Shown: positions 8,810-32,000, counted from the first letter of the stretch. The stretch: 32,000 bases of DNA from Aneurinibacillus danicus (GCF_007991215.1 NZ_BJXX01000047.1:1-32000), one strand, 5' to 3'. A program made the numbers and translations. Notes: a model not told the origin generated them from the letters alone.

Positions 8810-8815
8810 ACAGCG

Positions 8816-9574
8816 ATGGCTACAGATACGGAACGCATGATTGTGGCTTCGGCAAGACTACTGGAGGATAACAAAAGCGTGTTCGTTGGCACCGGTATGC
8901 CCATGCTGTCGGCTTCGCTTGCACAGCGCCTTCATGCGCCGGGATTGCTTACGATTTATGAAGGGGGCGGCGTAGGCGGACAGCCGGAAGGGCGACTCCC
9001 CATTCAGGTTAGCGAATCGTTGACTTTCCAAAACGGGGTCATCGTCGGGTCAATGGATTATGTCATGAGCCTGGCGCAGGCCGGGTACATTGAATATGGA
9101 TTCCTGGGCGGGGCTGAAATCGATCCGTACGGCAACCTTAACACTACCGTCATCGGGTCCTGGGAGAATCCGAAGGTTCGCCTGCCGGGTTCGGGCGGCG
9201 GTTCCGATATCGCCTCCCTCTGCTGGCGTACCATTATTTTGATGCGTCAGGACAAACGAAAATTCACGCCGAAGCTGAACTTCTTAACCAGTCCGGGGTA
9301 TTTAGACGGACCAGGCGCACGGGAGAGAAGCGGACTTCCGGCGAATACCGGCCCGTATCGTGTCGTGACGCAGCTTGGCGTATACGGGTTTCCGGAAGAG
9401 ACACGCCGTATGACACTTTTGCAGATATATGAAGGAGTTACGATAGAAGATGTGCAGGCCAACAGTGGATTTGATATTGATATTCATCCCGATGTAGAGA
9501 CGATTCCTGATCCTACGGAAGAAGAGGTAAACCAAATGTACAATTTGGATCCGGATGGCATTGTCCTTGCCTGA
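8816..9574 (+). CDS. family I CoA-transferase, subunit B (GctB-like)
   Basis: 6-nt gap from subunit A and an AAAGGAGG SD. The 252-aa size and the motifs VGTGMPMLSA...GGAEIDPYGNLNTT...LPGSGGGSDIA are typical of B subunits. Confidence 0.8.
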   Translation: MATDTERMIVASARLLEDNKSVFVGTGMPMLSASLAQRLHAPGLLTIYEGGGVGGQPEGRLPIQVSESLTFQNGVIVGSMDYVMSLAQAGYIEYGFLGGAEIDPYGNLNTTVIGSWENPKVRLPGSGGGSDIASLCWRTIILMRQDKRKFTPKLNFLTSPGYLDGPGARERSGLPANTGPYRVVTQLGVYGFPEETRRMTLLQIYEGVTIEDVQANSGFDIDIHPDVETIPDPTEEEVNQMYNLDPDGIVLA

Positions 9575-9641
9575 TGGACGGGAGAGAAAGATAACACACA
9601 TACAAAAAACCAAGTTTATACATATGAAAAGGGGGTAAAAA

Positions 9642-10754: not shown

Positions 10755-10768
10755 GAAAGGAGAACAAA

Positions 10769-11578
10769 ATGAACGGGCTTAGCATCGAAGGCGTATCCAA
10801 AGTTTTTGCAACCGGAAAGAAAGAACAATTTGTGGCGCTTGACCGGGTCAGTCTCACGATCCAACAGGGTGAATTTTTTGCCCTGTTGGGTCCGAGCGGA
10901 TGTGGAAAGTCGACCCTGCTTCATATATTGGCGGGGTTATCTGAGCCGTCCCAGGGCTGCGTTCTGTGGCAGGGACATAAAATTCAAGGTCCTGGACTTG
11001 ACCGCGGCGTTGTGTTTCAAACGTACTCCCTTTTCCCATGGATGACGGCGGAGGACAATTTACTCTTTGCGCTGAAACAAAAGGAAAGAAAGGGAGCCAG
11101 GCGGGATCACCAGGAGCGGGTCCGCCATATCCTTGACCAGGTCGGACTAAGCGGTTCAGAAAAGAAATATCCCATTCAACTGTCCGGCGGCCAACAGCAG
11201 CGGGTAGCCATCGCCCGTGCGCTTTTGCTCGAAGCGCCGCTTCTGCTGCTGGATGAACCCTTTGGCGCGCTGGATGCTATTTCCCGTGCGCAGCTACAGG
11301 AGCTTCTTTTGCGGCTTTGGCAGGAAAAAAAGCCGAAGCCCACGGTAATTATGGTTACGCATGATCTGGACGAAGCGATTTACCTATCCGATCGGATTGC
11401 CGTTCTGGCAGCCAATCCGGGGCGCATAACTGAATTGATTGCGATTCCATGGGCGAGGCCGCGCAAACGTAATGAGCTTTTGAGCAATCCGGAGCTACTC
11501 GATATTCGCGCCCGCCTTCTTAGCCTGCTGCAGGGAGAAGACGTTTCGGGACAGCAAGGGAGGGTTGCCGGATGGTAG
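10769..11578 (+). CDS. ABC transporter ATP-binding protein (NitT/TauT family)
   Basis: ATG at 10769 after AAAGGAG. Walker [10 protein letters not shown], signature [15 protein letters not shown], Walker [12 protein letters not shown]. Confidence 0.9.
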   Translation: MNGLSIEGVSKVFATGKKEQFVALDRVSLTIQQGEFFALLGPSGCGKSTLLHILAGLSEPSQGCVLWQGHKIQGPGLDRGVVFQTYSLFPWMTAEDNLLFALKQKERKGARRDHQERVRHILDQVGLSGSEKKYPIQLSGGQQQRVAIARALLLEAPLLLLDEPFGALDAISRAQLQELLLRLWQEKKPKPTVIMVTHDLDEAIYLSDRIAVLAANPGRITELIAIPWARPRKRNELLSNPELLDIRARLLSLLQGEDVSGQQGRVAGW

Positions 11579-12303
11579 GGTGGTTGCCGCTTCTTCTTAT
11601 CGGTATCGTATGGTATATCACAACGGATGTTTTCCAATGGTTAGATCCTTTTTTATTTCCGGGTCCGACAGCCGTACTGTCGATAATTGGGGAAGACTAT
11701 CCTTTCCTTTTCACCAGTTTGCTCTCATCCCTTACTCTTTTATTTGTTTCGTTTGGCTGCGCTATCGTTACGGCTATTCCGCTCGGACTGCTTGTTGGAC
11801 AAAGCAAACGGATCGAGCGGCTTATCCATCCATTCACAAATCTGGCTAGTCCGATTCCACCGATCGTATACATTCCGTATGCAGTGGCGCTGCTGCCGAC
11901 ATTCTGGCTCGCCTCCTCTTTTATTCTTTATATCGGGGCGTTCTGGCCGGTTTTTTTAAATACCGTGAACGGAGTCAAGCAGATTGACCACCGGCTACTG
12001 GATTCCGCGCATACCCTTGGCATTTCGAGAAAAGATTGGTACGCCAAAATTTTGTTGCCTGGAGCGATGCCCAGCATTTTTTCCGGGATGACGATCGGTC
12101 TTGTTCTTTCATTTATTCTGCTTACGGCGGCGGAAATTGTGGGGGGATCTTCCGGTCTCGGATGGTATGTAAAAAACTATAGTGATTTTGGGGATTATCC
12201 ACGTGTCGTCTCCGGGATTCTCTTTATCGGCCTGGTTGTAGCAGGACTCACGCAGATTATGCGGCGGACGGAGCGTTATGTGCTGCGCTGGCGTGAACGT
12301 TAG
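11572..12303 (+). CDS. ABC transporter permease (NitT/TauT family)
   Basis: The ATG overlaps the ATPase stop by 7 nt (ATGGTAG), suggesting translational coupling. About six TM segments, SsuC/TauC-like. Confidence 0.85.
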   Translation: MVGWLPLLLIGIVWYITTDVFQWLDPFLFPGPTAVLSIIGEDYPFLFTSLLSSLTLLFVSFGCAIVTAIPLGLLVGQSKRIERLIHPFTNLASPIPPIVYIPYAVALLPTFWLASSFILYIGAFWPVFLNTVNGVKQIDHRLLDSAHTLGISRKDWYAKILLPGAMPSIFSGMTIGLVLSFILLTAAEIVGGSSGLGWYVKNYSDFGDYPRVVSGILFIGLVVAGLTQIMRRTERYVLRWRER

Positions 12304-12339
12304 TCCCGGGAACAAAAAATAATTCGTTTTGAAAGGGGA

Positions 12340-13140
12340 ATGTTTCACTTGTCTATTCAAACAGAGGCCTATCAACATATTTTATTTGAAATTGAAGGGG
12401 CGATTGCTTATGTAACCATGAATCGTCCGGCCCAAAGAAATGCTCTTTCTCTTGAACATATGAAAGAGTTGCTCCACTGCTTTAAACAAATACAAGAAAA
12501 CCGTTCTGTTGCTGTTGTCGTATTGCGCGGCGCCGGGCCTGCTTTTTGCGCCGGTCACGATTTGAAAGAAATGAGAGGAGAGACGGCGTCATTCTATCGG
12601 AATTTATTTGGAGTTTGCAGTGAACTCATGGAAACGATTCAGACAATCCCACAGCCGGTTATTGCACAGGTGCAGGGTATCGCCACCGCCGCCGGCTGCC
12701 AGTTGGTAGCGACGTGCGATCTTGCTGTGGCAGCGGATACGGCTGTTTTTGCGACCCCGGGCGTGAAAATCGGTTTGTTTTGCTCTACACCGATGGTGGC
12801 TCTTTCCCGTGCCATCGGCCGCAAGAAAGCGATGGAGATGCTTTTGACAGGAGAGGCAATGTCGGCTCAGGATGCCGTAGCCGCCGGACTCATTAACCGG
12901 GCTGTGGCGGAAGAGAAGCTGACGGAAGCGACAGAAGCGCTTGCCCGCAAAATCGCGGAAGCCAGTCCGTATACGGTCGGAATCGGCAAGCAAGCCTTCT
13001 ATAAACAGATGGAGATGCCACAGTCTCTTGCCTACTCTTTTGCTCGTGAAGTGATGAGTGTAAATGCAGTAGCGGAAGATGCGCATGAAGGCATTTGCGC
13101 CTTTCTCGAAAAGCGTCCTCCGATCTGGAGAGGGCGCTAA
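12340..13140 (+). CDS. crotonase-superfamily (enoyl-CoA hydratase/isomerase fold) protein lacking the canonical hydratase glutamates
   Basis: The oxyanion-hole segment GAGPAFCAGHDL is present. Where hydratases have GGGxE and P-E, this protein has AAGCQ (Q121, nt 12700-12702) and TPG (G141). Confidence 0.85.
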   Translation: MFHLSIQTEAYQHILFEIEGAIAYVTMNRPAQRNALSLEHMKELLHCFKQIQENRSVAVVVLRGAGPAFCAGHDLKEMRGETASFYRNLFGVCSELMETIQTIPQPVIAQVQGIATAAGCQLVATCDLAVAADTAVFATPGVKIGLFCSTPMVALSRAIGRKKAMEMLLTGEAMSAQDAVAAGLINRAVAEEKLTEATEALARKIAEASPYTVGIGKQAFYKQMEMPQSLAYSFAREVMSVNAVAEDAHEGICAFLEKRPPIWRGR

Positions 13141-13220
13141 TCATACTATGCATTTCCGTAGCTCTAACAAAACCCCTGCCTTTTATCACCGAAAGGCGTG
13201 TTGATCCATCCAGTGATTTT

Positions 13221-13260
13221 TTATTCTTACTTGACTTATCGGAATATAAATGTTTATAAT
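13221..13260 (+). promoter_or_regulatory. ssu promoter overlapped by a CymR-box-like site
   Basis: TTGACT (13231-13236), 18-nt spacer, TATAAT (13255-13260). The 27-mer TTATTCTTACTTGACTTATCGGAATAT (13221-13247) matches 16 of 18 specified positions of the B. subtilis CymR consensus as I recall it (TAAWNCNNANTWNANNNATMGGAATTW). Confidence 0.5.
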
Positions 13261-13304
13261 GTGAGAAATTGATAGCATTTTAGATGGCCGATCAGTCAAC
13301 TGAA

Positions 13305-13351
13305 GGCTCTGTTATTTTGCCTGTGTTTGCAAAATGATAGAGTCTTTTTTT
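13305..13351 (+). terminator. leader (attenuator-type) terminator in the ssuD 5' UTR
   Basis: GGCTCT-gtt-ATTTTGC-ctgtgttt-GCAAAAT-gat-AGAGTC followed by T7. It lies between the promoter and the ssuD ATG at 13407. Confidence 0.55.
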
Positions 13352-13406
13352 GTTGTTTTTGCTTCGTCATTATCGAAGACATTACTAAAAAGGAGAGGCG
13401 GAGAAA

Positions 13407-14591
13407 ATGTCAACAGCGGTACAGGATGTAGAATTTGGATGGTTTATTCCTACGACAGGCGATGGGAAATATATTGGAACAGAATTAGAACGCGAGTCTA
13501 CAGCAGGTTACATGATTCAGGTAGCGCAGGCTGCCGAAGAGGCGGGCTATACGTTTGCGCTTATTCCGACAGGAGGCGGCTGCCTGGATGCCTGGATTGT
13601 AGGCTCGGCTATCGCAACCCATACCAAGGTATTGCGTCCGCTGGTGGCTATGCGTCCAGGTCTTATTTCACCGATTACGGCGGCGCGTATGGCGACATCC
13701 CTCGATTACATTTCCAACGGAAGAGTCGCCATTAACGTAGTAACGGGCGGTACACCACCGGATCTTGTGGCGATGGGCGATCCGCTGGCGTTCTCGCATG
13801 ACGAAAGATACGAAAGAACGCTGGAATTCATGACCATCGTAAAAGAGGTGCTGATTAACTCTAATACACATAAGTCTAAATATCTGGCTGCAAATGAAAA
13901 TTACCGGGAAATCAAAAAAGTTCATTTTAAAGGGAAATATTATGAGATTGAGGGCGGGGCCAGTTACCCCCCTCCCGTACAAAAACCGCATCCGCCGATT
14001 TACTTTGGTGGCAGTTCAGTAGCCGGAAAACGCACAGCCGCCGAAATCGCGGATGTTTACCTGATGTGGCCGGAGCCGCTGGGATGGATTGAAGAGCAAA
14101 TCGACGAAATGGAACGCATTCGTAAGGAGCTTCGGCAGGAAAAAGGGATCGACCGCCAGCTCCGTTACGGTCTGCGGGCTCAGGTACTCGTCCGGGAAAC
14201 GGAAGAGGCGGCCTGGGCAGCCGCATGGGAAATTATCAGTAAAGTAGACAAAAAAGCGGTAGAACAATCCAACGTGCGATTTACCCAAACCGATGCAGTA
14301 GGGCAGAAAAGACAAAACCAGCTTCGCAGCGAATCAGAGGAAAATGGGTATGTGATTGCTCCGAATCTTTGGGCGGGCTTATCCATCGTACGGGGAGGCG
14401 GCGCTATGATGCTGGTAGGAACGCCTGAGCAAGTGGCTGACCGTATTATTGAATATGTGGACGCTGGCATCTCCTCCTTTATTTTTTCCGGTTACCCAAA
14501 TCTGGAAGAAGCAGAAATCACAGGGAAGCTTTTATTGCCCGTCGTAAAAAGAAAGCTGCAGCAGCAAAAAAATACCACCGTTCAGCTTTAA
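13407..14591 (+). CDS. ssuD: FMNH2-dependent alkanesulfonate monooxygenase (LLM class)
   Basis: Collinear resemblance to B. subtilis/E. coli SsuD (WFIPT.GDG.Y.G, HDERYE, PHPPIYFGGSS, NLWAG...VRGGG..LVG, FIFSGYP.LEEA). Confidence 0.9.
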   Translation: MSTAVQDVEFGWFIPTTGDGKYIGTELERESTAGYMIQVAQAAEEAGYTFALIPTGGGCLDAWIVGSAIATHTKVLRPLVAMRPGLISPITAARMATSLDYISNGRVAINVVTGGTPPDLVAMGDPLAFSHDERYERTLEFMTIVKEVLINSNTHKSKYLAANENYREIKKVHFKGKYYEIEGGASYPPPVQKPHPPIYFGGSSVAGKRTAAEIADVYLMWPEPLGWIEEQIDEMERIRKELRQEKGIDRQLRYGLRAQVLVRETEEAAWAAAWEIISKVDKKAVEQSNVRFTQTDAVGQKRQNQLRSESEENGYVIAPNLWAGLSIVRGGGAMMLVGTPEQVADRIIEYVDAGISSFIFSGYPNLEEAEITGKLLLPVVKRKLQQQKNTTVQL

Positions 14592-14627
14592 CGATGAACA
14601 ATATCTGCGAGAGAGGAGAAAAGAGAC

Positions 14628-15407
14628 TTGACGCAATCTGCAGAACTGCGCATTGACTCGCTTCATAAATCGTTTACGAACCCGCAGGGCAGAATTCATG
14701 TGCTGGATAACATCAATGCTAAGATAAAGCCCGGGGAGTTTATCACGGTGATTGGACCAAGCGGATGCGGAAAAAGCACATTGCTTAAAATTATCGCCGG
14801 GCTGGATACGGATTACGAAGGAGCAGCCATTCTCGGCGGTAAGAAAATCGAGCGTCCCGGCATTAACCAGGGGTTTATTTTTCAGGAACACCGTTTATTT
14901 CCCTGGTTGACGGTAGAGAAGAACATCGCCGCCGATTTATCTTTGAAAGACCCGGAAATCCGCAACCGTGTGGATGAATTGATTCGTGTTGTACGCCTTG
15001 AAGGATTTGAGAAGGCGTACCCGCGGGAATTGTCCGGAGGAATGTCCCAGCGTGTGGCGATTGCGAGAGCACTTCTGCGCAGACCCGCCATTCTTCTTTT
15101 GGATGAACCGTTCGGAGCTTTGGATGCCTTTACCCGCAATCACCTTCAGGATGTTTTATTGGACATCTGGCGGCGGAACAAAACAACGATGATCCTTGTT
15201 ACCCATGATATCGACGAGTCCATCTATCTTGCCAATCGGGTCTTCATCATGAGTCCGCGGCCGGGAAGGATCAGCAAAATCATTCCTGTCCATCTTCCCT
15301 ATCCCCGTGCGCGGGCGGGCACTTGCTTTCAGGAGATTCGACAACGAGTGATGAGCGAATTCGAAAAAATAGAAGAAGCTCAGTTTATCGGTGGGTCGGG
15401 TATATAA
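14628..15407 (+). CDS. ssuB: aliphatic sulfonate ABC transporter ATP-binding protein
   Basis: TTG start at 14628 after GAGAGGAG. Walker [10 protein letters not shown], signature [15 protein letters not shown], Walker [12 protein letters not shown]. Confidence 0.85.
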
Positions 15408-15447
15408 CGCCCCCCCTAAAAAACGAAGAGTCAGCGAGGGAGGCAGT

Positions 15448-16311
15448 ATGCAAAATACGAACGAAGCGATTCGCATTACAGGCGCGACGGAAAGTGCAAA
15501 AAGCAAACCCAATCGTCACGCGGTTACGGCACTGAAAACAAAAGGAAAACAGGCAGTTCAAGGAATGATTCTTCCTGCGATGATATTGGGGATATGGCAG
15601 ACGGTTGGGGCGATGAATCTGGTTTCCAGTACCATTTTACCTACGCCCGTAGCAATTGGCCAGGCCTTCATCGACCTGATTGTGTCCGGAGAATTATTCT
15701 CTCATCTACAAATCAGTATATTCCGTGCCGTGCTGGGGTTTTTGCTAGGAGCGGGATTGGGGCTGATTCTGGGCACACTGGTCGGATTTTTCAACCGGGC
15801 TGAACAGACGGTGGATCCTACGCTTCAAATGCTGCGAACCATTCCGCATCTGGCTGTCATGCCGCTGTTTATTCTGTGGTTCGGTTTTGGGGAGCTGTCC
15901 AAAGTGCTGTTGATTGCAAAAGGGGCATTCTTTCCGGTCTATCTCAATACATTCCTTGGCATTCGCGGAGTCGATGCAAAATTGTTTGAGGTGGCACGCA
16001 TTCTTGAGTTTAACAGAGTAAAGCTGGTCACCAAACTCATTTTGCCTGCAGCCATGCCGAACATTTTGCTCGGCATCCGTCTCTCGCTGGGGATTGCCTG
16101 GCTCGGCCTTGTTGTGGCTGAACTGATGGGATCAAGTGAAGGGGTAGGCTATATGATTATGGACGCCAGACAGTTTACCCAGACCGACATTGTGTTTGTA
16201 GGCATTATTATTTTTGCTTTGGTTGGTAAATTGACAGATTCTTTGGTGCGCTATTTTGAATCCAAATTATTGAAATGGCGTGAAAGCTATAAAGGAGAAG
16301 GCACCCTATAG
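15448..16311 (+). CDS. ssuC: aliphatic sulfonate ABC transporter permease
   Basis: ATG at 15448 after GAGGGAGG. SsuC/TauC-type permease. Confidence 0.85.
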   Translation: MQNTNEAIRITGATESAKSKPNRHAVTALKTKGKQAVQGMILPAMILGIWQTVGAMNLVSSTILPTPVAIGQAFIDLIVSGELFSHLQISIFRAVLGFLLGAGLGLILGTLVGFFNRAEQTVDPTLQMLRTIPHLAVMPLFILWFGFGELSKVLLIAKGAFFPVYLNTFLGIRGVDAKLFEVARILEFNRVKLVTKLILPAAMPNILLGIRLSLGIAWLGLVVAELMGSSEGVGYMIMDARQFTQTDIVFVGIIIFALVGKLTDSLVRYFESKLLKWRESYKGEGTL

Positions 16312-16334
16312 GATAAAGAAGAAGGAGGCTTGTT

Positions 16335-17372
16335 ATGAAAAAAGTAAGAGGTTTAATGGGGGTTTTTCTTTTGACAGTGGTTTTTGCCTTGGTGGCAGGG
16401 TGCGGAAATAAAGAAACTGCGGGTCAAAAGGATGCAGGAGAAGCAAAGGCTCAGACCAAGGAAGAAAAAGTCGTAAATATCGGCATTCAACAGAGCATCT
16501 GGCCAATTCTGATTGCAAAAGAAAAGGGCTGGTTTGAAGAAGAGTTCGCAAAAGTCGGTGCGAAGGTGAACTGGGTGGAATTTCAAAGTGGACCTGCTTA
16601 TTTTGAAGCTATCGTTTCCAACCGGCTGGACTTTGGACGGGTGGGGAACATTCCCGTCCTTGCTGGCCAGGCGGCCAATGTCCCGTTTAAAGAAATCGCA
16701 AATGGAAGCAACGGGGAGAAAGGCGATGCCATTCTGGTTCGCAAAGACAGTCAGATTCGCACGCTTCAGGACTTAAAAGGCAAAAAAATTGCAGTAGCCA
16801 AAGGAAGCAGCGCTTACGGGCTGTTATACAAGGCTCTGGCCAAGGCGAACATCGACCCGGCCGATGTAAAAATCATTCAACTACAGCCGGATGAAGCGCA
16901 GCCGGCTTTCGAAACCGGTTCCGTCGATGCATGGGCGATTTGGGAGCCGTTCCAATCCACACAGGTTATCAAAAATGGTGCGAAAGTGATCGCTAACGGG
17001 GAAACGATTCAATCATCAAGCCCGGGATTTCAAATCGTGCGCAGTAAGTTTGCGGAAGAAAATCCCGACCTGGTTGTTCGTTATTTGAAAGTAACGGAAA
17101 AAGCAACCCGCTGGCAAAAAGAACATCCGGAAGAAGCCGTTAAATTGTATGCAAAATTGAAGAAAGTAGACGAAAAGATTATTCGCCAGGTTATCAAAAA
17201 CTCCGAAGCGGCGAACCTTCCGATCACCGATGAAGTGATAAAAAACCAGCAGGAAACGGCAGATCTTCTGTACGATCTTGGCGGACTTAAGAGGAAGGTG
17301 GATACCAAAGAAGTCGTGGATAACTCTTATATTGAAAAAGCCTTAAAAGAGTATAATGCGGAAAACAAATAA
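16335..17372 (+). CDS. ssuA: aliphatic sulfonate-binding lipoprotein
   Basis: Lipobox LVAGC and an SsuA-family fold. It is the last gene of the ssuDBCA block. Confidence 0.85.
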   Translation: MKKVRGLMGVFLLTVVFALVAGCGNKETAGQKDAGEAKAQTKEEKVVNIGIQQSIWPILIAKEKGWFEEEFAKVGAKVNWVEFQSGPAYFEAIVSNRLDFGRVGNIPVLAGQAANVPFKEIANGSNGEKGDAILVRKDSQIRTLQDLKGKKIAVAKGSSAYGLLYKALAKANIDPADVKIIQLQPDEAQPAFETGSVDAWAIWEPFQSTQVIKNGAKVIANGETIQSSSPGFQIVRSKFAEENPDLVVRYLKVTEKATRWQKEHPEEAVKLYAKLKKVDEKIIRQVIKNSEAANLPITDEVIKNQQETADLLYDLGGLKRKVDTKEVVDNSYIEKALKEYNAENK

Positions 17373-17390
17373 AGTATAGAAGCGTTTTTT

Positions 17391-17416
17391 GCCCACTTTC
17401 ATAGTGGGCCTTTTTT
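17391..17416 (+). terminator. rho-independent terminator after ssuA
   Basis: GCCCACT-ttcat-AGTGGGC followed by CTTTTTT. Confidence 0.85.
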
Positions 17417-17551
17417 GTTGCGAATGTAGCACTCCGGCAAAAAGAGTGTATAAATCGGGCATAAAATGATGGAATCTTTAGTAATGTATACTCACTATAT
17501 TGTTTCTATGATTTTATTCGTGTAACAGTCTTCCGCATCAAGGAGGTTATT

Positions 17552-18838
17552 ATGTCTCTTTATTTTTTTGAACCAACGTTAGAATGCGCCCGGCAGTTGG
17601 ATCAAAACGATAGACTTTCCCGCTTTCGCAGCGAGTTTTACTTACCTCCTACCTCCATTTACATGGATGGAAATTCGCTGGGCCTTCTTTCCAAGAGAGC
17701 GGAGAAAACATTGTTGGAATCTCTGGATGATTGGAGAGAGCTGGGGATTGGCGGATGGAGCAGAGGAAACCATCGCTGGTTTTATCTGTCAGAGCGACTG
17801 GGGGAGATGAGTGCGCCATTAGTGGGAGCTGCTCCTGATGAAGTAATCGTAACTGGCTCTACCACGGTGAATTTACATCAACTGGTGGCTACTTTCTATC
17901 AGCCCGAAGGAAAACGAACCAGGATTCTAGCGGATGAGCTTACTTTTCCATCCGATATTTATGCGCTGCAAAGCCAGCTTCGTCTGCACGGATACGAGCC
18001 GGATACGCATCTTATTCAGGTAAGAAGCCGGAATGGCAGATTCCTTGAAGAGGAAGATATCATTGCCGCTATGACGGACGAGATTGCTCTCGTTATCCTG
18101 CCGACCGTTCTTTACCGCAGTGGTCAAATCCTGGATATGGAGCGATTGACAAAGGAAGCCCATGCCCGCGGAATTTTGATCGGATTCGACGGATGCCATT
18201 CCATTGGGGCAATCCCGCATTCCTTTAGTGAATGGGGTGTAGATTTTGCTTACTGGTGCAACTACAAGTATGTAAACGGCGGTCCCGGCTGTGTGGGTGG
18301 ATTGTATGTTAATCGGAAGCATTTCGGGCGTCATCCAGGTCTGGCCGGGTGGTTCGGTTCAAAAAAAGACAAACAGTTTGACATGGAGCATACGCTGACG
18401 CCGGCGGAAACAGCGGGTGCTTATCAAATTGGAACGCCCCATATATTGAGTCTTGCTCCTTTGATCGGCTCTCTGGAAATTTTTGCAGAGGCTGGCATTG
18501 AGAACATTCGCCGGAAATCCCTGCATATGACCCGGTATTTGATGGATTTGCTTGAACACGAGCTTCCGAATATGGGTTTTGTCATTGGAAATCCGAGAGA
18601 TGACAGGCGCCGGGGAGGGCACATTAGCCTTGAGCACGAAGAGGCCGCGCGCATCTGCAAATCGCTGAAAGAAAACGGTGTCATTCCCGATTTTCGTGCG
18701 CCTAACATGATTCGTCTTGCGCCGATCGCGCTCTATACCTCTTATGCGGAGATTTGGAAAGCCGTACAAACGCTGAAAAATATAATGGAAGAAAAACAAT
18801 ACAAAAAATTTAAGAACGAGCGCGAAGTGATCGCTTAA
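17552..18838 (+). CDS. kynU: kynureninase
   Basis: 428 aa with an AGGAGG SD. Typical kynureninase N-terminus and PLP region ([11 protein letters not shown]). Confidence 0.9.
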
Positions 18839-18904
18839 TTATCAAGTGGAATTAGCCGAAAGCGGATAAAAAGCCCATTTGTGAAAGCGGAGGGGGAAAA
18901 CGTC

Positions 18905-19762
18905 ATGCCGCACATGAACAAAAATGAGGACGATGCCAAGTCGGGATTAGGAAAAGACATTCATACTGATTTTAAAAAAGAGATGTCTTACGGAGATTAT
19001 CTCCAGCTTGATAAGGTATTGTCCAGTCAACAGAGATTGTCCGCGCATCATGATGAAATGCTCTTTATTATTATTCATCAGGCCAGCGAGTTATGGATGA
19101 AGCTGATTTTACATGAGCTATCCGCAGCCATCCGGTGTATCCGCTGCGGCGAGCTGGAAGCGCCGTGTAAGATGTTATCCCGTGTTTCCAGAATACAGCA
19201 GCAGTTGATTCAGTCATGGAGTGTCCTGTCCACTCTGACACCGGCTGAATATATGGAGTTCAGGGATAAACTGGGCCATGCATCCGGATTCCAATCTTAC
19301 CAAAACAGGCTGATCGAATTTGCTCTTGGAAATAAAAACGTTCATATGCTGGCCGTTTTTCGGCATCAGCCTGAACTGTATGCCCAAATGCAGAAAGCGC
19401 TTCATGAGCCCGGCCTTTATGACGCGGCGATTGAAGCGCTGGCAGCCCGCGGACTGCCGATTGATGGGGAGTGTCTTGGAAGGGATCTATCACAACAGTA
19501 TCAGCCTCATGCCAGTGTGGAAGCCGCCTGGCTGACTGTGTACCGCAATGTGGATAAATACTGGGATTTGTATGAGCTGGCGGAGAAAATGGTGGATATC
19601 GGAAGCGGGCAACAGTTGTGGCGGTACAATCATATGATCACGGTGGAACGTATTATCGGCCATAAACAGGGAACCGGCGGATCATCGGGTGTTACGTATT
19701 TAAAAAAGGCGCTGGAGCAGCACTTTTTCCCTGAATTATGGAGTTTGAGAACGAAGCTGTAA
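18905..19762 (+). CDS. kynA: tryptophan 2,3-dioxygenase
   Basis: ATG at 18905 after GGAGGGGG. Contains the [14 protein letters not shown]...[19 protein letters not shown] motif of TDO. Confidence 0.9.
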
Positions 19763-19786
19763 GCGGAGTCCAACGGAGGGGTACCG

Positions 19787-20413
19787 ATGAATTCATGGAT
19801 TGACATTTCCCAGCGGCTGGACGAAAAGGCGGCCGTTTGGCCGGGGGATACGCCTTTTTCCTATCGGCTGAATTGGGGAAAGCGGGACAGCGGATCGGTC
19901 AATGTAGGTCAGATCACCATGAGCGTGCATACAGGTACGCACATTGATGCTCCTTTTCATTTTGATGATGAAGGAAAGCGGGTGATTGAACTGGACCTGG
20001 ATGTATATATTGGTCGTGCCCGTGTCATTCATCTGCCCGGCACTGACAGGATTGGTTTGAATGAATTGAATAGCATAGGGATAGAGGGAGTAAACCGGCT
20101 ATTGATTTATACAGGTGCCTGGCGGGACCGGAGTGTTTTCCCGGAGAACATCCCCCATGTACAGCCTGAAGCAGCTGCCTATCTTTCGGAAAAAGGGGTT
20201 CGCCTGATTGGCCTGGATTTGCCTTCTGTCGACCCGTTGGACAGCAAAGAGCTGCCCGCCCACCATAGGCTGACCCGTTACGGGATTCACATCCTGGAAG
20301 GAATCGTGCTGGACGATGTACCGCCCGGAGACTATGAACTAGCGGCTCTTCCATTGCCTCTGGCAGAAGCGGATGGAAGTCCGGTGAGGGCTGTACTAAG
20401 AAAGTGCCGCTAA
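19787..20413 (+). CDS. kynB: kynurenine formamidase (cyclase family arylformamidase)
   Basis: HTGTHIDAPFHF metal-binding motif, 208 aa, and kynurenine-operon context. Confidence 0.9.
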   Translation: MNSWIDISQRLDEKAAVWPGDTPFSYRLNWGKRDSGSVNVGQITMSVHTGTHIDAPFHFDDEGKRVIELDLDVYIGRARVIHLPGTDRIGLNELNSIGIEGVNRLLIYTGAWRDRSVFPENIPHVQPEAAAYLSEKGVRLIGLDLPSVDPLDSKELPAHHRLTRYGIHILEGIVLDDVPPGDYELAALPLPLAEADGSPVRAVLRKCR

Positions 20414-20461
20414 CGAATCGGCGGATGCTTCGGGAAGAATGAACAACGTGGAAGCGAATAA

Positions 20462-20487
20462 GCCGGCCTGCTTTTAGGCCGGTTTTT
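20462..20487 (+). terminator. rho-independent terminator after kynB
   Basis: CCGGCCT-gctttt-AGGCCGG followed by TTTTTT. Confidence 0.85.
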
Positions 20488-20578
20488 TATGATATTGCCT
20501 TTATAAAAGTAAGTAATAAGCGTTACTGTACTTTCATAAAGTTAGTAATGTACAAAAATATAAACGGAGGGTTGCAAA

Positions 20579-20965
20579 ATGGCGGACGCTGGAATTTTAC
20601 TTATCCGTTTGGTTATTGGCTTAACTTTTATGGGGCATGGTGCACAAAAGCTGTTTGGCTGGTTTGGCGGCTATGGACTGAAAGGCACCGGTGGATGGTT
20701 GGAGTCTATTGGTGTGAGACCGGGTGTATGGATGGCCTTTCTGGCCGGAGCAGGGGAGCTGGTGGGAGGTGCTTTGTTTGCGGCAGGCATTTTGACGTCG
20801 GTTGGTGCTGCGCTTATCGTCATCATTATGCTGGTCGCCACTTTTACTGTACATGCGAAAAACGGATACTGGGCAACCGCAAACGGGTTTGAATACAATT
20901 TGGTTTTGATTGCCATCGCGATTGGCGTAGCGCTGATCGGTCCCGGTTCTTATACCCTTTTCTAA
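20579..20965 (+). CDS. DoxX family membrane protein
   Basis: 128 aa with four TM segments. The [21 protein letters not shown] motif is typical of DoxX/MhqP/CatD-like proteins. Confidence 0.85.
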
Positions 20966-21009
20966 ATGATTGTTCGCTCCCGCCTATTATGGTAAGCCGT
21001 TCAACAACG

Positions 21010-21038
21010 AAAACCCGGAATTTAGAGTTCCGGGTTTT
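21010..21038. terminator. bidirectional terminator between doxX (+) and the pspA homolog (-)
   Basis: AAAACCCGGAA-tttagag-TTCCGGGTTTT. The A/T tracts are symmetric on both sides, and it lies between convergent genes. Confidence 0.8.
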
Positions 21039-21075: not shown

Positions 21076-21744
21076 TCAAGATAAAATCCGGGTTTTCTTT
21101 AGGTTCTCTAATTCCTTCTGTACCTCTTCTTCAAGAGCAGCGTCCTTCATATAGGAAGAAATGATTTGCGAATCCTGGAGCAGTCTACTGTTTGCCTCGA
21201 CCTCAGCCTCCATCATCAAAATTCGTTCTTCTGCACGAGCCACCCCTTTCGTTATGGTTTCTGTACGCAAGAAAACGGATGTATTGTGCATCTGTTTCAT
21301 CGATTGAGCTACGTTGAGCCTGGAGAGTAAAAGGAGCCTCTTGTGCTGCAATTCATTATATTTCTTCTTGAGTTGATTCAGCTTTTCGCATAGCGCGCCT
21401 GTCTGGTTTTTAATCGTTTCATACTGTTCTTTATACAGTGTTACTTTTTTCTCCAGGCTCAGTTTTTCCTGCAAGGCCAGCTTTGCGATGGCTTCTTCCT
21501 CCTGATCCACAGCCAGTTTCGCCTGGCGCGTCCTTTTGGCTATCATTTTCTCTGTGTTTAGTATAAGTGCCAACTGTTTCTTTTCGAGGAAAATTTGGTT
21601 TGAAAGAGCCTGCTGTCCTTTGGCAATTCCCGCCTCCATCTCCCGCACATAGTGGTTCAGCATGGTAATCGGGTCTTCTATCTGATCGAGCAGCCTGTTT
21701 ATTTCAGCCGTGGTAATGTCCTTGATACGTTTAAAAATTCCCAT
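21076..21744 (-). CDS. PspA/IM30 family protein (LiaH-like)
   Basis: ATG at 21744 after AAGGAGG. The N-terminus MGIFKRIKDITTAEINRLLDQIEDP is the PspA signature, followed by a long coiled coil. Confidence 0.85.
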   Translation of the reverse strand: MGIFKRIKDITTAEINRLLDQIEDPITMLNHYVREMEAGIAKGQQALSNQIFLEKKQLALILNTEKMIAKRTRQAKLAVDQEEEAIAKLALQEKLSLEKKVTLYKEQYETIKNQTGALCEKLNQLKKKYNELQHKRLLLLSRLNVAQSMKQMHNTSVFLRTETITKGVARAEERILMMEAEVEANSRLLQDSQIISSYMKDAALEEEVQKELENLKKTRILS

Positions 21745-21745
21745 G

Positions 21746-22162
21746 TTATTGTTCCTCCTTATGATTTGTTTGGTTTGCTTGCTTTTTTTCCCACTCATCT
21801 AAGAGATCTAGCTGATGGGGATTGGTGGTATAGCTGTAAAAAGAAACCGGCGCTTCTGTGATTGCATGATTGAAATGGCGTGTGCCTCTTTTTTTCAGCA
21901 GCCATCCGATTATGACAGCGATGAGCGCCAACCAGAAAACAAGGGATAAAGCAGTGCCAATGAAATAGAACATGCCCGCCGGGTGGTGTTCAGACATAAA
22001 ATGGGGACGTCCATGCCCATAACCGGGATGGAATGATGGAGGACCATGATGCGCTGCATGCATGTCCGGTCCCCCCGGCATTCCCATAACCCATTGGATA
22101 GCAAGCAGAATAAAGAGGGCTGCCAGCATCCATAGTACGACTTTCCATGCTTTTGTTTTCAT
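21746..22162 (-). CDS. small two-TM membrane protein with a His/Gly/Pro-rich extracytoplasmic loop
   Basis: AAAGGAGGAAAG SD. TM1, then GGPDMHAAHHGPPSFHPGYGHGRPHFMSEHHP, then TM2, then a charged tail. Its stop lies 1 nt from the pspA-homolog start, and the SD for that gene is embedded in its last codons. Confidence 0.75.
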   Translation of the reverse strand: MKTKAWKVVLWMLAALFILLAIQWVMGMPGGPDMHAAHHGPPSFHPGYGHGRPHFMSEHHPAGMFYFIGTALSLVFWLALIAVIIGWLLKKRGTRHFNHAITEAPVSFYSYTTNPHQLDLLDEWEKKQANQTNHKEEQ

Positions 22163-28020: not shown

Positions 28021-28132
28021 GGTCTTTCCCTCCATGAGTAATTGAGGAAAAACCTGCGAGGCGTGTGCCGACCGTTGCTTTTTTCGTGTGGACCTTAAGG
28101 GAGGGAAAGACCGGCAACGCCCGCGAGTTTTT
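28021..28132 (+). terminator. complex inverted-repeat region with two T-runs (probable terminator; possible alternative folds)
   Basis: A perfect 13-bp inverted repeat: GGTCTTTCCCTCC (28021-28033) and GGAGGGAAAGACC (28100-28112). A second interleaved pairing joins CTGCGAGGCGTGTGCCG (28055-28071) with CCGGCAACGCCCGCGAG (28111-28127). T6 lies at 28079-28084 and T5 at 28128-28132. Confidence 0.45.
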
Positions 28133-28393
28133 CTTATGAATCATTTTTTTTATAACCTTGTATTGATTAAAGTATCGTATTCATCTACAATGCCTAAATT
28201 ATATTCCAGTGAATGCTCACAATAATAGCACTTTTCCATATCCGTTCCTCCATTCATGTAATAAACTTGTGTTCATATGTTTTCCCTGTATATTTTTCTC
28301 AAAGCCCTTGTCCTTTATTAGGACGAATTTTGAAAAATTATTTTTTCCGTTATCAAGCTGTCTAATTAGAAAAGAAGAGAAGGGCAACGTATA

Positions 28394-28402
28394 TGGTATA
28401 AT
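28394..28402 (+). promoter_or_regulatory. extended -10 element (TGgTATAAT), candidate hfq promoter
   Basis: TGGTATAAT lies 69 nt upstream of the hfq start in a 330-bp AT-rich, ORF-poor spacer. No good -35 is present. Confidence 0.4.
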
Positions 28403-28470
28403 GGTATAGTAGAAGAGGAGCAATGAAGCGTACCACTGTTTTTACTACATAGAGGGAGGAATGTTATCCA

Positions 28471-28692
28471 TTGGAAAAAGCAAAACTTCAAGATTATTTC
28501 TTAAATCAACTACGTAGCAACAAAATCCCGGTTACTGTTTTTACAATAAATGGTGTACAAATGCGGGGGCTTATCGCTTCCTTTGATCAATATACGGTTG
28601 CTATACAGGTTGAAAACAAACAAAATATTCTCTACAAAGCAGCCATTTCCACCATTGTCCCTTTGAAGCCTGTTTCGCTAACAACGAAATAA
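28471..28692 (+). CDS. hfq: Hfq-family RNA chaperone, divergent paralog
   Basis: TTG start after AGAGGGAGGA. The Sm1/Sm2 fold is collinear with B. subtilis Hfq (LQDYFLNQLR...VTVFTINGVQMRG...FDQYTV...LYKAAISTIVP). It is not in the usual miaA-hfq context. Confidence 0.85.
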   Translation: MEKAKLQDYFLNQLRSNKIPVTVFTINGVQMRGLIASFDQYTVAIQVENKQNILYKAAISTIVPLKPVSLTTK

Positions 28693-28859
28693 AAAGGCCG
28701 CTTCTCCATTTAAACGTGCGAGAAAAACAAATTGTTAGCTTCCCTAGCGCATATCTTTACTTTTCTTCTTTCCGACTTCGCTCTCTTCCTTCTACCTCGC
28801 TCCACTACCAGAATGTCGGTATATCAAGTGTGATTTATATAGACAACCCATCCCCGCGG

Positions 28860-28891
28860 CAGTCGCCCCTCACCCAGGGCGGCTGTTTTTT
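28860..28891 (+). terminator. rho-independent terminator about 170 nt downstream of hfq
   Basis: CAGTCGCCC-ctcaccca-GGGCGGCTG (one G-U pair) followed by TTTTTT. Confidence 0.8.
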
Positions 28892-28954
28892 ATGGGCGAA
28901 AACATGCTATGAAGTGCCAAATTTTCGCCTGTTTATACCAAAAAAAAGTATACG

Positions 28955-29028
28955 CCTATCAATTTCGACAAGAATATACAGAAAATGATAAGAAAAATAT
29001 TGGCATGCGTTTTGCCTATATTGATAGG
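28955..29028. promoter_or_regulatory. operator-like inverted repeats upstream of mftA
   Basis: CCTATCAAT (28955-28963) and its exact reverse complement ATTGATAGG (29020-29028). The second site is embedded in the 14-bp palindrome CCTATATTGATAGG (29015-29028). Confidence 0.4.
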
Positions 29029-29064
29029 TGTACGAAAAATCAGCAAAGAGAGGGGGAACATAGT

Positions 29065-29178
29065 ATGGCACCTCAAGCAGCGCTCTTGGAAATTGAAGAG
29101 TTGATGAATGAGCCGGAAGTGTTGGATGAACTTATGGTAGAGGAAATGACCATTGATTGTATCTGTGGCGTCTATTAA
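29065..29178 (+). CDS. mftA: mycofactocin precursor peptide MftA (37 aa)
   Basis: The internal ATG at 29065 follows AGAGAGGGGG. The product is MAPQAALLEIEELMNEPEVLDELMVEEMTIDCICGVY. The acidic leader and C-terminal ...ID..CGVY match the MftA hallmark (mycobacterial ...IDGMCGVY). It lies immediately upstream of mftB/mftC homologs. Confidence 0.85.
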   Translation: MAPQAALLEIEELMNEPEVLDELMVEEMTIDCICGVY

Positions 29179-29235
29179 TCTACTTTTCTTAACAAAGGCT
29201 ACCCGTCCAGTAATCGTGACGGAGGAGGTACAAAT

Positions 29236-30042
29236 ATGAAGTCGTTTGAAAATAAAGTTGTCATGATTACTGGAGCGGCAAGAGGACAGGGGAGAAACCA
29301 TGCGGTGAAATTTGCCGAGCTCGGCGCCAAGCTTATTGTCTGTGATATTTGCGAAGATATAGAAGGGGTAACGTATTCACTGGGGACAGAAGAACAATTT
29401 TCTGTTTGTCTTGAAGAGATTACACATAAAACAAACGGACAGGTTGTAAGTGCACGCTGCGATGTACGTGATAGCACGTCTGTTACGAGGCTGGCAGAGC
29501 AAGGAATTAAGCGTTTTGGTCGAATTGATGTTCTGGTAAACAATGCGGGAGTGTGCAATATCAAACCTGCGTGGGAAATTAACGACGTTGATTGGGATGC
29601 GATGATCGGCGTGAATTTAACCGGTACATGGAATAGCTGTAAAGCCGTAATTCCTGTGATGAAAAACCAGCATTATGGCCGGATTATTAATGTCGGGTCG
29701 ATCGCAGCGATGAAAGGCATCCCTAATTTAGTTCATTATACGGCCGCCAAACACGGTGTCGCAGGGCTAACGAAAGCTTTAGCCATTGATCTTGCTCCTT
29801 ATGGAATTACGGTTAATTGTATTTGTCCGGGCTCTGTAGACACAGACATGCTGGCTGGACTGGCACCTGAAATCGAGGCAGATGTATATGAAGCGAAAAC
29901 TTTATTTGCCAGCTATCACTTATTACCCGGACTCATTCAGCCGGAAGATACGACCGAGCTTGTAATGTGGCTCGCTTCCGATGCGTCCCGGTCGGTGACC
30001 GGAGCAGTCTGGAATATGGATAGAGGATGGGCACAGCGATAA
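29236..30042 (+). CDS. mycofactocin-coupled SDR family oxidoreductase (carveol dehydrogenase-like nicotinoprotein type)
   Basis: The TGAARGQGR glycine-rich motif is characteristic of the mycofactocin-associated SDR subfamily. Catalytic motif YTAAK. NNAG motif. Confidence 0.8.
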   Translation: MKSFENKVVMITGAARGQGRNHAVKFAELGAKLIVCDICEDIEGVTYSLGTEEQFSVCLEEITHKTNGQVVSARCDVRDSTSVTRLAEQGIKRFGRIDVLVNNAGVCNIKPAWEINDVDWDAMIGVNLTGTWNSCKAVIPVMKNQHYGRIINVGSIAAMKGIPNLVHYTAAKHGVAGLTKALAIDLAPYGITVNCICPGSVDTDMLAGLAPEIEADVYEAKTLFASYHLLPGLIQPEDTTELVMWLASDASRSVTGAVWNMDRGWAQR

Positions 30043-30061
30043 GAAAAGGAGAATACGGCAT

Positions 30062-30328
30062 ATGAATGAACAAACAAAATATCGTTTGCGCGACGAAGTG
30101 AAAGTGAGAAAAGAAAAATTTGGCGGACTTGTTTACGACCACAAGGATGGCAAGCTTCAGTTTATTCATTCACATTTGATCATGTGTTTTTTAGAGAATG
30201 ACGGAACATATTCTGTTCAGGAAATGGCAGAAAAAATCGCTCCGGGGAAAATAAAAGGAAACGCAATGGAATTTATCATGAAAAGTTTAACGGATCTTCA
30301 TAAAGGAGGAGTCATACATGAAGTATGA
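30062..30328 (+). CDS. mftB: mycofactocin biosynthesis chaperone MftB (PqqD-like RiPP recognition element)
   Basis: 88 aa with a YRLRDEVKVRKEKFGGLVYD... PqqD-type N-terminus. It sits between the precursor/SDR genes and the radical SAM gene. Confidence 0.8.
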   Translation: MNEQTKYRLRDEVKVRKEKFGGLVYDHKDGKLQFIHSHLIMCFLENDGTYSVQEMAEKIAPGKIKGNAMEFIMKSLTDLHKGGVIHEV

Positions 30329-31349
30329 ATGGCTGCTTGAAGGACTGACGGCTCCGATTTGTGTAACATGGGAAGTGACGTTTGCTTGTAATTTAAGTTG
30401 CGAACACTGCTTGTCCGCTTCCGGAAAGCGGAAACCGGATGAGTTGACATATGAAGAAGCAAAAGCAATGATCGATGATTTGGCCGCTATGGGCGTCTGT
30501 TATATAAACATCGGAGGAGGAGAACCTCTGATGCGTCCAGATTTTCTTGAGTTAGTAGAATACGCGGGGGAAAAAGGGCTACCCGTACAATTCAGCACAA
30601 ACGGTACGCTTATAACAGAGAAAATGGCTAAGAGGATTGCCGCTATCCCGCATGTCCGTGTCCAGGTTAGCATTGACGGGGCAACAGAAGAAGTCAATGA
30701 CAGTATACGGGGAAAAGGAAGTTTTGCCGGCGCACTGCGGGCGGTTGAATTACTAAGCAAGGAAAACATCGAACTTTCGGTAAACATGGTAGCCACACGC
30801 AGCAATTTTGATCAGATCGAGGATTTATATCAAATTGTAAGAGGACACGGAGCAAAATTTCGCGTAGCACGTCTTCGTCCGTCCGGCCGAGGGATAGACA
30901 GCTATCATTACCTGCATTTAACGCCGGAACAAAATATACAGCTGTACCAATGGGTAAAAGCTCATCCTGATGTAACGACAGGCGACTCTTATTTTATTCT
31001 TTCCGCTTTAGGAGAACCGATTCCCGGACTGAACGTTTGCGGTGCATCACGGGCCACATGTTGTATTACACCAACAGGCAATGTATATCCATGCGCATTT
31101 CTCATCAATGATGATTGTATGGTAGGAAACATTCGCGAGAAGCCGCTTTCGCAAATGTGGATTGATACTCCTTTATTTGAAAAATTCCGCACGACAAGGG
31201 TTAAAGCATGTTTGGGCTGTCCAAGTTACAACGATTGCGGTGGTGGATGCCATGCGGTGAGCTACCATTTAACAGGCGATTTGTTTGAAAAAGACCCGGA
31301 ATGTCTGATTTCTTACAGGAAGACAAAAAGAAAAGAGGTAACGGTATAA
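30318..31349 (+). CDS. mftC: mycofactocin radical SAM maturase MftC (SPASM domain)
   Basis: 11-nt overlap with mftB. CNLSCEHC radical SAM cluster motif in the context LTAPICVTWEVTFACNLSCEHCLS. Cys-rich SPASM C-terminus (CGASRATCCITPTGNVYPC...CLGCPSYNDCGGGC). Confidence 0.9.
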   Translation: MKYEWLLEGLTAPICVTWEVTFACNLSCEHCLSASGKRKPDELTYEEAKAMIDDLAAMGVCYINIGGGEPLMRPDFLELVEYAGEKGLPVQFSTNGTLITEKMAKRIAAIPHVRVQVSIDGATEEVNDSIRGKGSFAGALRAVELLSKENIELSVNMVATRSNFDQIEDLYQIVRGHGAKFRVARLRPSGRGIDSYHYLHLTPEQNIQLYQWVKAHPDVTTGDSYFILSALGEPIPGLNVCGASRATCCITPTGNVYPCAFLINDDCMVGNIREKPLSQMWIDTPLFEKFRTTRVKACLGCPSYNDCGGGCHAVSYHLTGDLFEKDPECLISYRKTKRKEVTV

Positions 31350-31382
31350 AGGTAAATTAACGTATTGCGAGGCGGGGGAACT

Positions 31383-32000
31383 GTGAGTATAACAAAGCAA
31401 AAACAATTGCTCGCTCCCTTAACTATAGGTTCCATAGAGATACCTAACCGTGTAGTTTTTGGGGCGCATCCGACAAACTTTGCCGAGAAAAATATACCGG
31501 GGGAAAGGCATCTGCATTATTACGAAGAAAGAGCCAGAGGCGGAGCCGGTCTTATCATTGTAGAAGAAGGATATGTGCACGAGTCTGACTTTCCTTATGA
31601 ATATGCCATTCTAGCTTATAAACCGGAAGTAACGGAAGGATACAGGCAGCTCACTGATGCTGTTCATAAGTATGGTACAAAGATATTTGCACAGTTAGGT
31701 CACAGCGGGAGCCAGGCAGACAGCAGCCTGAGCCAGCGGGAACTATGGTCACCTTCCGGATTTCAGACAGATGCGGAAGTACCGAAGATTATGGAGCAGG
31801 AAGATATTCAGGCGGTAGTACGGGGATTTGTTACCTCTTCCCGGCATGTTAAGGAGGCGGGCGTTGACGGCATCGAATTAAATGGCGGGCAGCGTTCATT
31901 GATTCGTCAGTTTATGTCAGGACTAACGAATCATCGGCAGGATGAATACGGGGGAACGCTGGAAAATCGTTTGCGGTTTGTTAGAGAGATTATCGCTGCT
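31383..32000 (+). CDS. Old Yellow Enzyme / FadH-type FMN oxidoreductase, 5' part (runs off the window)
   Basis: It is absent from the ORF track because no stop is reached. GTG at 31383 follows GGCGGGGGA. The frame is open for 206 codons: ...LAPLTIGSIEIPNRVVFGAHPTNF...ERARGGAGLIIVEE...IFAQLGHSG...GVDGIELNG...NHRQDEYGG, the classic OYE N-terminal TIM-barrel motifs. Confidence 0.8.
   Translation, partial: MSITKQKQLLAPLTIGSIEIPNRVVFGAHPTNFAEKNIPGERHLHYYEERARGGAGLIIVEEGYVHESDFPYEYAILAYKPEVTEGYRQLTDAVHKYGTKIFAQLGHSGSQADSSLSQRELWSPSGFQTDAEVPKIMEQEDIQAVVRGFVTSSRHVKEAGVDGIELNGGQRSLIRQFMSGLTNHRQDEYGGTLENRLRFVREIIAA

Follow-up and report, generated by a model that had tools for sequence, protein, structure and literature searches.

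In the window, a 32,000-nt stretch of DNA from the thermophile Aneurinibacillus danicus (Bacillales, Paenibacillaceae), positions 29065–32000 hold genes of the mycofactocin system, and this 3' end is very probably the start of an A. danicus island for mycofactocin biosynthesis and alcohol oxidation. Read from the sequence, the core consists of mftA, a client short-chain dehydrogenase/reductase (SDR), mftB, mftC and a flavoenzyme of the old yellow enzyme (OYE)/FadH type. The cluster is a known system that RefSeq and UniProt already list under mycofactocin, and its architecture is that of a conserved, curated but biochemically uncharacterised cluster type. To this our analysis adds a predicted sigma-54 promoter element upstream of mftA, a precursor core (IDCICGVY) confined to one lineage, and the observation that MftD and the module of OYE and electron transfer flavoprotein (ETF) genes did not co-occur at any of 37 loci.

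Core genes in the window

Three core proteins, all encoded on the plus strand, scored above the curated cut-offs of the NCBIfam hidden Markov models (HMMs) by which we assigned families: the precursor MftA (29065–29178; TIGR03969, 29.7 bits, cut-off 25), the 88-aa PqqD-like peptide chaperone MftB (30062–30328; TIGR03967, 47.1 against 33) and the 343-aa radical SAM/SPASM maturase MftC (30318–31349; TIGR03962, 423.9 against 265), which carries the motif CNLSCEHC and whose gene overlaps mftB by 11 nt. The 268-aa SDR between mftA and mftB (29236–30042, plus strand; motif ITGAARGQGRN), presumed to be a client dehydrogenase of the nicotinoprotein type, reached 299 bits on TIGR03971 (SDR_subfam_1), 1 bit short of the cut-off of 300. 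Such a set of matches lies far outside chance expectation. These assignments agree with the first-pass annotation of this DNA, which had described an SDR with a TGAARGQGR motif, an 88-aa PqqD-like protein and an overlapping CNLSCEHC radical SAM enzyme at these positions. The radical SAM enzyme also falls within the MftC family rather than outside it, since its runner-up family, AhbD (heme b synthase), scored only 202 bits.

Conservation of the maturase points the same way. In an alignment of the window MftC with ten relatives, C24, C28 and C31 (CX3CX2C) and seven C-terminal cysteines were invariant, and the window protein was 48% identical to MftC of our Mycobacterium reference locus (L081), whose MftD, MftE, MftF, MftG and MftR each score above the cut-off of their HMM. 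The Pfam domain MftB_chaperone is recorded for mftB on public contigs. Exact-sequence look-up matched MftC to WP_146808872.1 / GEN33541.1 ('mycofactocin radical SAM maturase [Aneurinibacillus danicus]') and the SDR to WP_146808870.1 ('mycofactocin-coupled SDR family oxidoreductase [Aneurinibacillus]'). These matches settle the host, which the first-pass annotation had described as Bacillales-like.

Directly after mftC, a GTG start at 31383 opens a gene (OYEa, plus strand) that runs off the window at 32000. Its N-terminal 206 aa belong to a FadH/OYE-family Fe-S flavoenzyme, with TIGR03997 (mycofact_OYE_2) as the best family at 297 bits, a score to which the cut-off of 793 does not apply because the protein is a fragment. 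The full-length OYEa from a same-species contig (651 aa; L097, 12148–14100) scored 764.9 bits against that cut-off, and its downstream paralog, OYEb, scored 940.5 bits. The position of an OYE/FadH-type gene immediately after mftC was thus read correctly from the window, and a second such gene follows it.

The biosynthetic logic resembles that of pyrroloquinoline quinone (PQQ), in which PqqA, PqqD and PqqE likewise combine a precursor peptide, a PqqD-like chaperone and a C–C-forming radical SAM/SPASM enzyme to yield a redox cofactor. The A. danicus peptide, however, lacks the Glu/Tyr motif of PQQ precursors, the downstream enzymes differ, and the PqqE model gave MftC 143.5 bits, far under its cut-off of 381.

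The precursor peptide

The mftA gene, which encodes the 37-aa peptide MAPQAALLEIEELMNEPEVLDELMVEEMTIDCICGVY ending in ...EEMTIDCICGVY, is nested within an 89-aa open reading frame (ORF; 28909–29178), and public gene calls differ between the two forms (the 89-aa ORF in L092, L096 and L098; the 37-aa ORF in L001, L097 and L099). We favour the 37-aa form because the sigma-54 element described below lies within the longer ORF, and because a Shine-Dalgarno sequence, GAGGGGGA (29050–29057, plus strand, as read from the sequence), ends 8 nt before the ATG at 29065. The first-pass annotation had likewise picked out a 37-aa peptide with a strong Shine-Dalgarno sequence in this ORF, a reading that the TIGR03969 match now reinforces.

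MftA C-termini across all loci took three forms: the canonical IDGMCGVY in Actinomycetota, Chloroflexota and others; VDGICGIY in Desulfobacterota; and IDCICGVY, which was restricted to the window's own Bacillota lineage. Members of that lineage, ordered by MftC identity to the window, were L007 (85%), L009 (65%) and a metagenome-assembled genome (MAG), 'Bacillota bacterium HOT.MB2.4' (L010/L012, 60%). The core is identical in L007 and L009, the form SIDCICGVY is found in L010 and L106, and all of L010–12 share the lineage core. A pattern scan of metagenomes for IDCICGVY returned four contigs, three from the same species and one from a further relative. The change from Gly to Cys at position −6 is fixed throughout this Bacillota lineage and was absent from about 60 other MftA sequences. 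It is a single change: the two extra core cysteines claimed at first reduce to one, because the canonical core already has Cys-4. Of MftA, the characterised pathway carries only Val-Tyr into the cofactor (PMC7491314); residue −6 falls in the discarded part of the peptide, so the Cys there should leave the cofactor unchanged.

The island beyond the window

We reconstructed the island beyond the window from same-species contigs carrying the exact SDR or MftF sequence (>99.3% nucleotide identity), which together with the window cover about −29/+21 kb around mftA. On contig L102, mftA (234–347), the SDR gene (405–1211), mftB (1231–1497) and mftC (1487–2518) are followed by OYEa (2552–4507; TIGR03997, 765 bits, cut-off 793), OYEb (4507–6456; 940 bits), etfA (6469–7506), fixC (7503–8801), fixX (8814–9098), etfB (9112–9981) and mftF (10001–11506). 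The product of mftF passed its model (TIGR03965, 366.8 bits, cut-off 280) and is identical to WP_146808879.1, 'mycofactocin biosynthesis glycosyltransferase MftF [Aneurinibacillus]'.

Beyond mftF lie genes that fit a role in alcohol oxidation. An iron-containing alcohol dehydrogenase (Fe-ADH; 11596–12813), best matched by NDMA-dependent methanol dehydrogenase, is followed by a MadB-like AAA ATPase (12934–13839; NF047784, MadB family, 326 bits, cut-off 475) and a MadC-like VWA protein (13856–15277; NF047783, MadC family, 150.9 bits, cut-off 600). On the minus strand are a creatininase-family protein (15319–16032; TIGR03964, MftE, 96 bits, cut-off 172), the acetaldehyde dehydrogenase ExaC (16122–17642; 982.7 bits, cut-off 900), a sigma-54-dependent response regulator (17808–19325), a GAF/PAS histidine kinase (19325–21028) and a second Fe-ADH, which begins at 21038 and runs off the contig end. 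ExaC and Fe-ADH fit the known link between mycofactocin and ethanol or methanol oxidation (PMC6529628).

The first-pass annotation had expected mftD, mftE and mftF, if present, beyond the window. That expectation holds for mftF and in part for mftE, for which the creatininase-family gene is a divergent candidate, so the three are not missing as a group; mftD, in contrast, is absent from the region covered. Here tblastn searches of the window and contigs L092–L105 gave no match to a verified MftD (the L081 protein, 711 bits on TIGR03966), and likewise none to MftG or MftR in the window or same-species contigs.

Several of these observations weigh against the island encoding a complete, standard mycofactocin pathway. 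The creatininase homolog shares 30% identity with a verified MftE across 91% of the latter, and falls well short of the MftE cut-off (96 against 172 bits). EtfA (167 against 240) and EtfB (101 against 200) do not reach the cut-offs set for mycofactocin-associated ETFs. Most serious is the absence of MftD near mftA, because deletion of mftD in M. smegmatis abolishes all mycofactocins (PMC7491314). MftD is nonetheless not strictly defining for the system: Haft 2011 (PMC3023750) describes mftA, B, C and F as the universal core, with MftF co-occurring universally, and states that mftD, mftE and mftR are not universal. Given the lack of a local MftD, either the product could be a different one or the mftD gene may lie in another part of the genome.

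Upstream region and regulation

Upstream of mftA, on the plus strand, an intrinsic-terminator-like hairpin with a T-run (28858–28895; hairpin 28858–28887, with an 11-pair stem containing 7 G-C pairs and an 8-nt loop, then TTTTAT) follows hfq and, as predicted from its sequence, bounds the mft transcription unit on its upstream side. Between this boundary and the gene lies a sigma-54-type −24/−12 element, TGGCATGCGTTTTGC (29001–29015, plus strand), ~50 nt upstream of the mftA ATG. The pattern, used without its last base (a strict version ending in W gave no match), matched twice in the 32-kb window against 0.19 matches expected, and one of the two is the match in the mftA leader. In L007 (5509) and L009 (5668) the same element occupies the corresponding position ahead of mftA. 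The A. danicus island also codes for a sigma-54 activator and a GAF/PAS kinase, which in L009 lie directly upstream of the cluster. We infer that mftA may be transcribed from the predicted sigma-54 promoter under the island's two-component activator, in place of a TetR-type MftR. A second, weaker sigma-54-like element, TGGCATGTATTTTGAA (L102 17693–17708, minus strand), ~50 nt upstream of exaC, suggests that the aldehyde dehydrogenase is co-regulated with mftA.

The absence of a TetR-type mftR upstream, noted from the window itself, extends to the whole region covered, and no Bacillota locus contained a match to a verified TetR-family MftR (TIGR03968). The two features proposed in its stead fared less well. 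We rejected the pair of palindromic sites as an operator: the best inverted repeats upstream of mftA (10–13 nt, 77–90% complementarity) were not above chance, and a perfect 8-nt pair, GGCGAAAA-N19-TTTTCGCC (28895–28929), compares with ~0.3 expected in such a region by our own estimate. The hfq paralog was also rejected as part of the system, as relatives do not keep it together with the cluster: it is missing from L007, L009 and L010, and some same-species contigs have lost its 5' end. In four of these (L092, L093, L096 and L001), window positions 28119–28516, comprising the region upstream of hfq and its first ~15 codons, are deleted at a GCAAC microhomology, and three others (L097, L098 and L099) have an insertion of 218 bp at 28203/28204. 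Such polymorphism among >99% identical contigs suggests that this hfq copy is dispensable.

Distribution of the cluster type

The order mftA-(SDR)-mftB-mftC-OYE-OYE-etfA-fixC-fixX-etfB-mftF-dehydrogenase is common to L007, L009 and L010/L012. A scan of species-representative genomes with MftC alone as query found no relative; an alignment-based scan of such genomes yielded 80 mftC loci, the best at 60% identity; A. danicus was not among them, its region possibly being masked in that collection. Within this set, an OYE pair with FixC/ETF genes after mftC also occurred in Chloroflexota, Competibacteraceae, Solirubrobacterales and Acidimicrobiia. NCBI models named 'mycofactocin system FadH/OYE family oxidoreductase 1/2' and 'mycofactocin-associated electron transfer flavoprotein alpha/beta' indicate that the OYE/ETF association is known to curators. 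The OYE gene does occupy the mftD slot, as the first-pass annotation observed, but this arrangement is less unusual than it was taken to be, being that of a curated family found there in many phyla.

Could the cluster be a decaying or silent remnant of horizontal acquisition, from which no cofactor is made? Its distribution in Bacillales is patchy (the best Bacillota relatives in the species-representative scan were two MAGs, at 54–60% identity), the G+C content of 28–32 kb (0.42–0.45) is slightly below that of most of the window, and MftD is absent locally. Set against these points, many same-species contigs carry every gene intact (110 blocks of the collection list the identical SDR sequence), gene order and catalytic cysteines are kept down to 60% MftC identity, and the promoter element is conserved. 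We regard such decay as highly improbable.

Competibacteraceae loci (L027–L061) contain mftC, two OYE genes, a FixABCX-type ETF, an MftE-like gene, mftF and ExaC, the last 80–82% identical to the Aneurinibacillus enzyme; no peptide ending in ...CG[VI]Y was found within 6 kb of their mftC, so the precursor gene must lie elsewhere or be different. Desulfobacterota loci (L044–L089) have an SDR gene, usually MftF and the core VDGICGIY, probably the 'variant-type' MftA of NF040489. With no MftD, MftE-like or OYE gene within 10 kb, they are a third, minimal cluster type.

The OYE and ETF module

The OYE proteins are three-domain FMN/4Fe-4S/FAD enzymes whose closest solved structures are 2-naphthoyl-CoA reductase and FadH, with trimethylamine dehydrogenase (TMADH) and histamine dehydrogenase more distant. 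OYEb matched 2-naphthoyl-CoA reductase at 350 bits, FadH at 292 and TMADH at 240. Its cluster motif CxxCxxxC...C and its nucleotide-binding motif GGGPAG are retained, but at the site of the FMN-linking His-Cys30 of TMADH it has His-Met. As measured on the L097 copies, which served for the island's OYE, ETF and Fix HMM scores, the best matches of the Fix module were FixC (400.8 and 370.7 bits) and FixX, all below curated cut-offs. The gene set etfA(fixB)-fixC-fixX-etfB(fixA) is that of FixABCX electron-transferring flavoprotein complexes, from which the A. danicus module differs in its location inside an mft cluster, beside two FadH-type enzymes. Relative to the NCBIfam mycofact_OYE/mft_etf families, OYEa is just under and EtfA/EtfB are well under the curated cut-offs.

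Since neither MftD nor MftG lies in the neighbourhood, the OYE pair and FixABCX most likely serve as a route of electron transfer; they would pass electrons between mycofactocin(ol) and ETF/FixCX, and from there to menaquinone. MftG is absent from roughly 25% of mftC genomes, and its replacement has been left open (PMC11778925). We therefore rate the OYE/ETF module as a possible functional counterpart of MftG above a role as substitute for MftD, given that the OYEs are nearest to 2-naphthoyl-CoA reductase/FadH and that OYEb lacks the FMN-linking Cys. As a general proposal, that in MftG-less organisms the OYE pair and a FixABCX-type ETF re-oxidise mycofactocinol into the quinone/ferredoxin pool, possibly also carrying out the MftD step, we hold this idea to be less likely than not.

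An alternative role follows from the gap left by MftD. The FadH/OYE pair and the FixABCX-type ETF might replace it as an oxygen-independent amine dehydrogenase, converting AHDP to premycofactocin. Immediately following mftC, the OYE genes take up the slot of mftD, and the solved homologs nearest to their products include the trimethylamine and histamine dehydrogenases of the same superfamily, which pass electrons to ETF, the physiological acceptor of TMADH. Co-occurrence is suggestive as well: among the 37 loci with ≥5 kb of sequence upstream and ≥9 kb downstream, the OYE module was found near mftC in 17 (16 of these also with FixC) and MftD in five, never both. As a test, this exclusivity is weak, however (hypergeometric P about 0.04), and it lacks phylogenetic independence; the 15 loci with neither MftD nor OYE show that loss of MftD does not require an OYE. 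OYEs of the TIGR03996/7 type also stand beside the mft clusters of Frankia and Rhodococcus, which have MftD. Finally, the greater similarity of OYEb to 2-naphthoyl-CoA reductase and FadH than to TMADH, together with the missing Cys, weakens the candidacy of the OYEs as TMADH-like amine dehydrogenases, and we consider this replacement of MftD unlikely.

Proposed pathway in A. danicus

Taking the steps from the mycobacterial system (PMC7491314, PMC9062424), MftB would bind the MftA leader and present MftA to MftC, which would oxidatively decarboxylate Tyr37 and link C-beta of Val36 to C-alpha of the tyramine. Release of AHDP would then fall to a peptidase, most likely the creatininase homolog, MftF would add beta-1,4-glucose units, and the SDR and Fe-ADH would use the cofactor as acceptor for bound NAD(H) in alcohol oxidation. 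The MftB and MftC steps and MftF glucosylation in A. danicus are well supported by homology, and the creatininase homolog probably carries out AHDP release; in M. smegmatis, another peptidase can partly replace MftE (PMC7491314). In mycobacteria MftD deaminates AHDP to the redox-active keto-amide (PMC7491314, PMC9062424), a step for which homology provided no candidate within the region covered. Given the phenotype of the M. smegmatis deletion, this is the one real gap in the pathway.

It is conceivable that the gap reflects a different end product, for example a cofactor that is of a glycosylated AHDP type or bound to peptide, or a peptide with a further modification derived from the extra Cys at −6. 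The local lack of MftD, the divergence of the MftE candidate and the fixation of that Cys in one lineage are consistent with such a product, and SPASM enzymes, the class to which MftC belongs, form thioethers in other families. Arguing for an ordinary cofactor instead are the conservation of the CGVY end and of the MftB, MftC and MftF equivalogs, the location of residue −6 in the discarded peptide (PMC7491314), and client nicotinoprotein families (SDR and Fe-ADH) that are those of canonical systems (Haft 2011, PMC3023750). We accordingly think a different product quite unlikely.

Comparison with known systems

The A. danicus system shares with mftABCDEF (+mftG, mftR) of M. tuberculosis and M. 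smegmatis the CGVY end, MftB, MftC, MftF, nicotinoprotein SDR and ADH clients and the link to alcohol oxidation. It differs in having no MftD, MftG or TetR-type MftR in the region covered, a divergent MftE candidate encoded on the opposite strand 3.8 kb beyond mftF, and two FadH/OYE genes and FixABCX between mftC and mftF. Its predicted sigma-54 promoter element and activator, and its core of IDCICGVY rather than IDGMCGVY, are further differences, as is the client SDR inserted between mftA and mftB, an insertion first noted in the window and borne out by the gene order at 29065–30328.

A Firmicute-like host, in contrast, is not the novelty it was first taken to be. Haft 2011 (PMC3023750) reports the system 'sporadically in Firmicutes' (Pelotomaculum and Desulfotomaculum), and the non-actinobacterial clusters it describes (Pelotomaculum thermopropionicum, Desulfotomaculum acetoxidans and Geobacter uraniireducens) include Firmicutes hosts, the mftA/B/C/F core and Fe-ADH and SDR clients. 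Given that paper and the curated models, neither the host phylum, nor an OYE in the mftD slot, nor a missing mftR is new. What sets A. danicus apart from those non-actinobacterial clusters is a Bacillales rather than an anaerobic clostridial or deltaproteobacterial host, together with a Cys at −6 specific to its lineage. Our full-text literature search found no paper pairing 'mycofactocin' with 'Aneurinibacillus' or with 'electron transfer flavoprotein', and just one, on an unrelated matter, pairing it with 'old yellow enzyme'.

Surrounding genes

The remainder of the window from 140 to 20410 is ordinary Bacillales chromosome. It encodes a sulfate ABC transporter (cysP/T/W/A), two sulfonate and nitrate-type ABC systems, an SsuD-like monooxygenase, a CoA-transferase-like pair with an enoyl-CoA hydratase, and a kynurenine pathway (kynureninase, tryptophan 2,3-dioxygenase and arylformamidase) whose kynureninase is 82–83% identical to the enzymes of Bacillus fengqiuensis, Parageobacillus and Bacillus songklensis. 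A DoxX-family protein (20579–20962) scored 42.9 bits on the 'HvfX family Cu-binding RiPP maturation protein' model (cut-off 80) and is probably only a generic DoxX. It is followed by a LiaH/PspA-like gene (21076–21798, minus strand). Directly after a 2-hydroxy-3-oxopropionate-reductase-like gene is a perfect 13-nt inverted repeat, GGTCTTTCCCTCC ... GGAGGGAAAGACC (28021–28033 / 28100–28112), with 66 nt between its arms.

Significance

As a mycofactocin cluster, the A. danicus locus is nothing new: its proteins are already named, and occurrences in Firmicutes have been on record since 2011. The cluster type matters for the question of how organisms that lack MftD and MftG complete and recycle the cofactor. 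If the proposed role of the OYE/ETF module is true, A. danicus would offer a cultivable model for an MftD/MftG-independent mycofactocin pathway.

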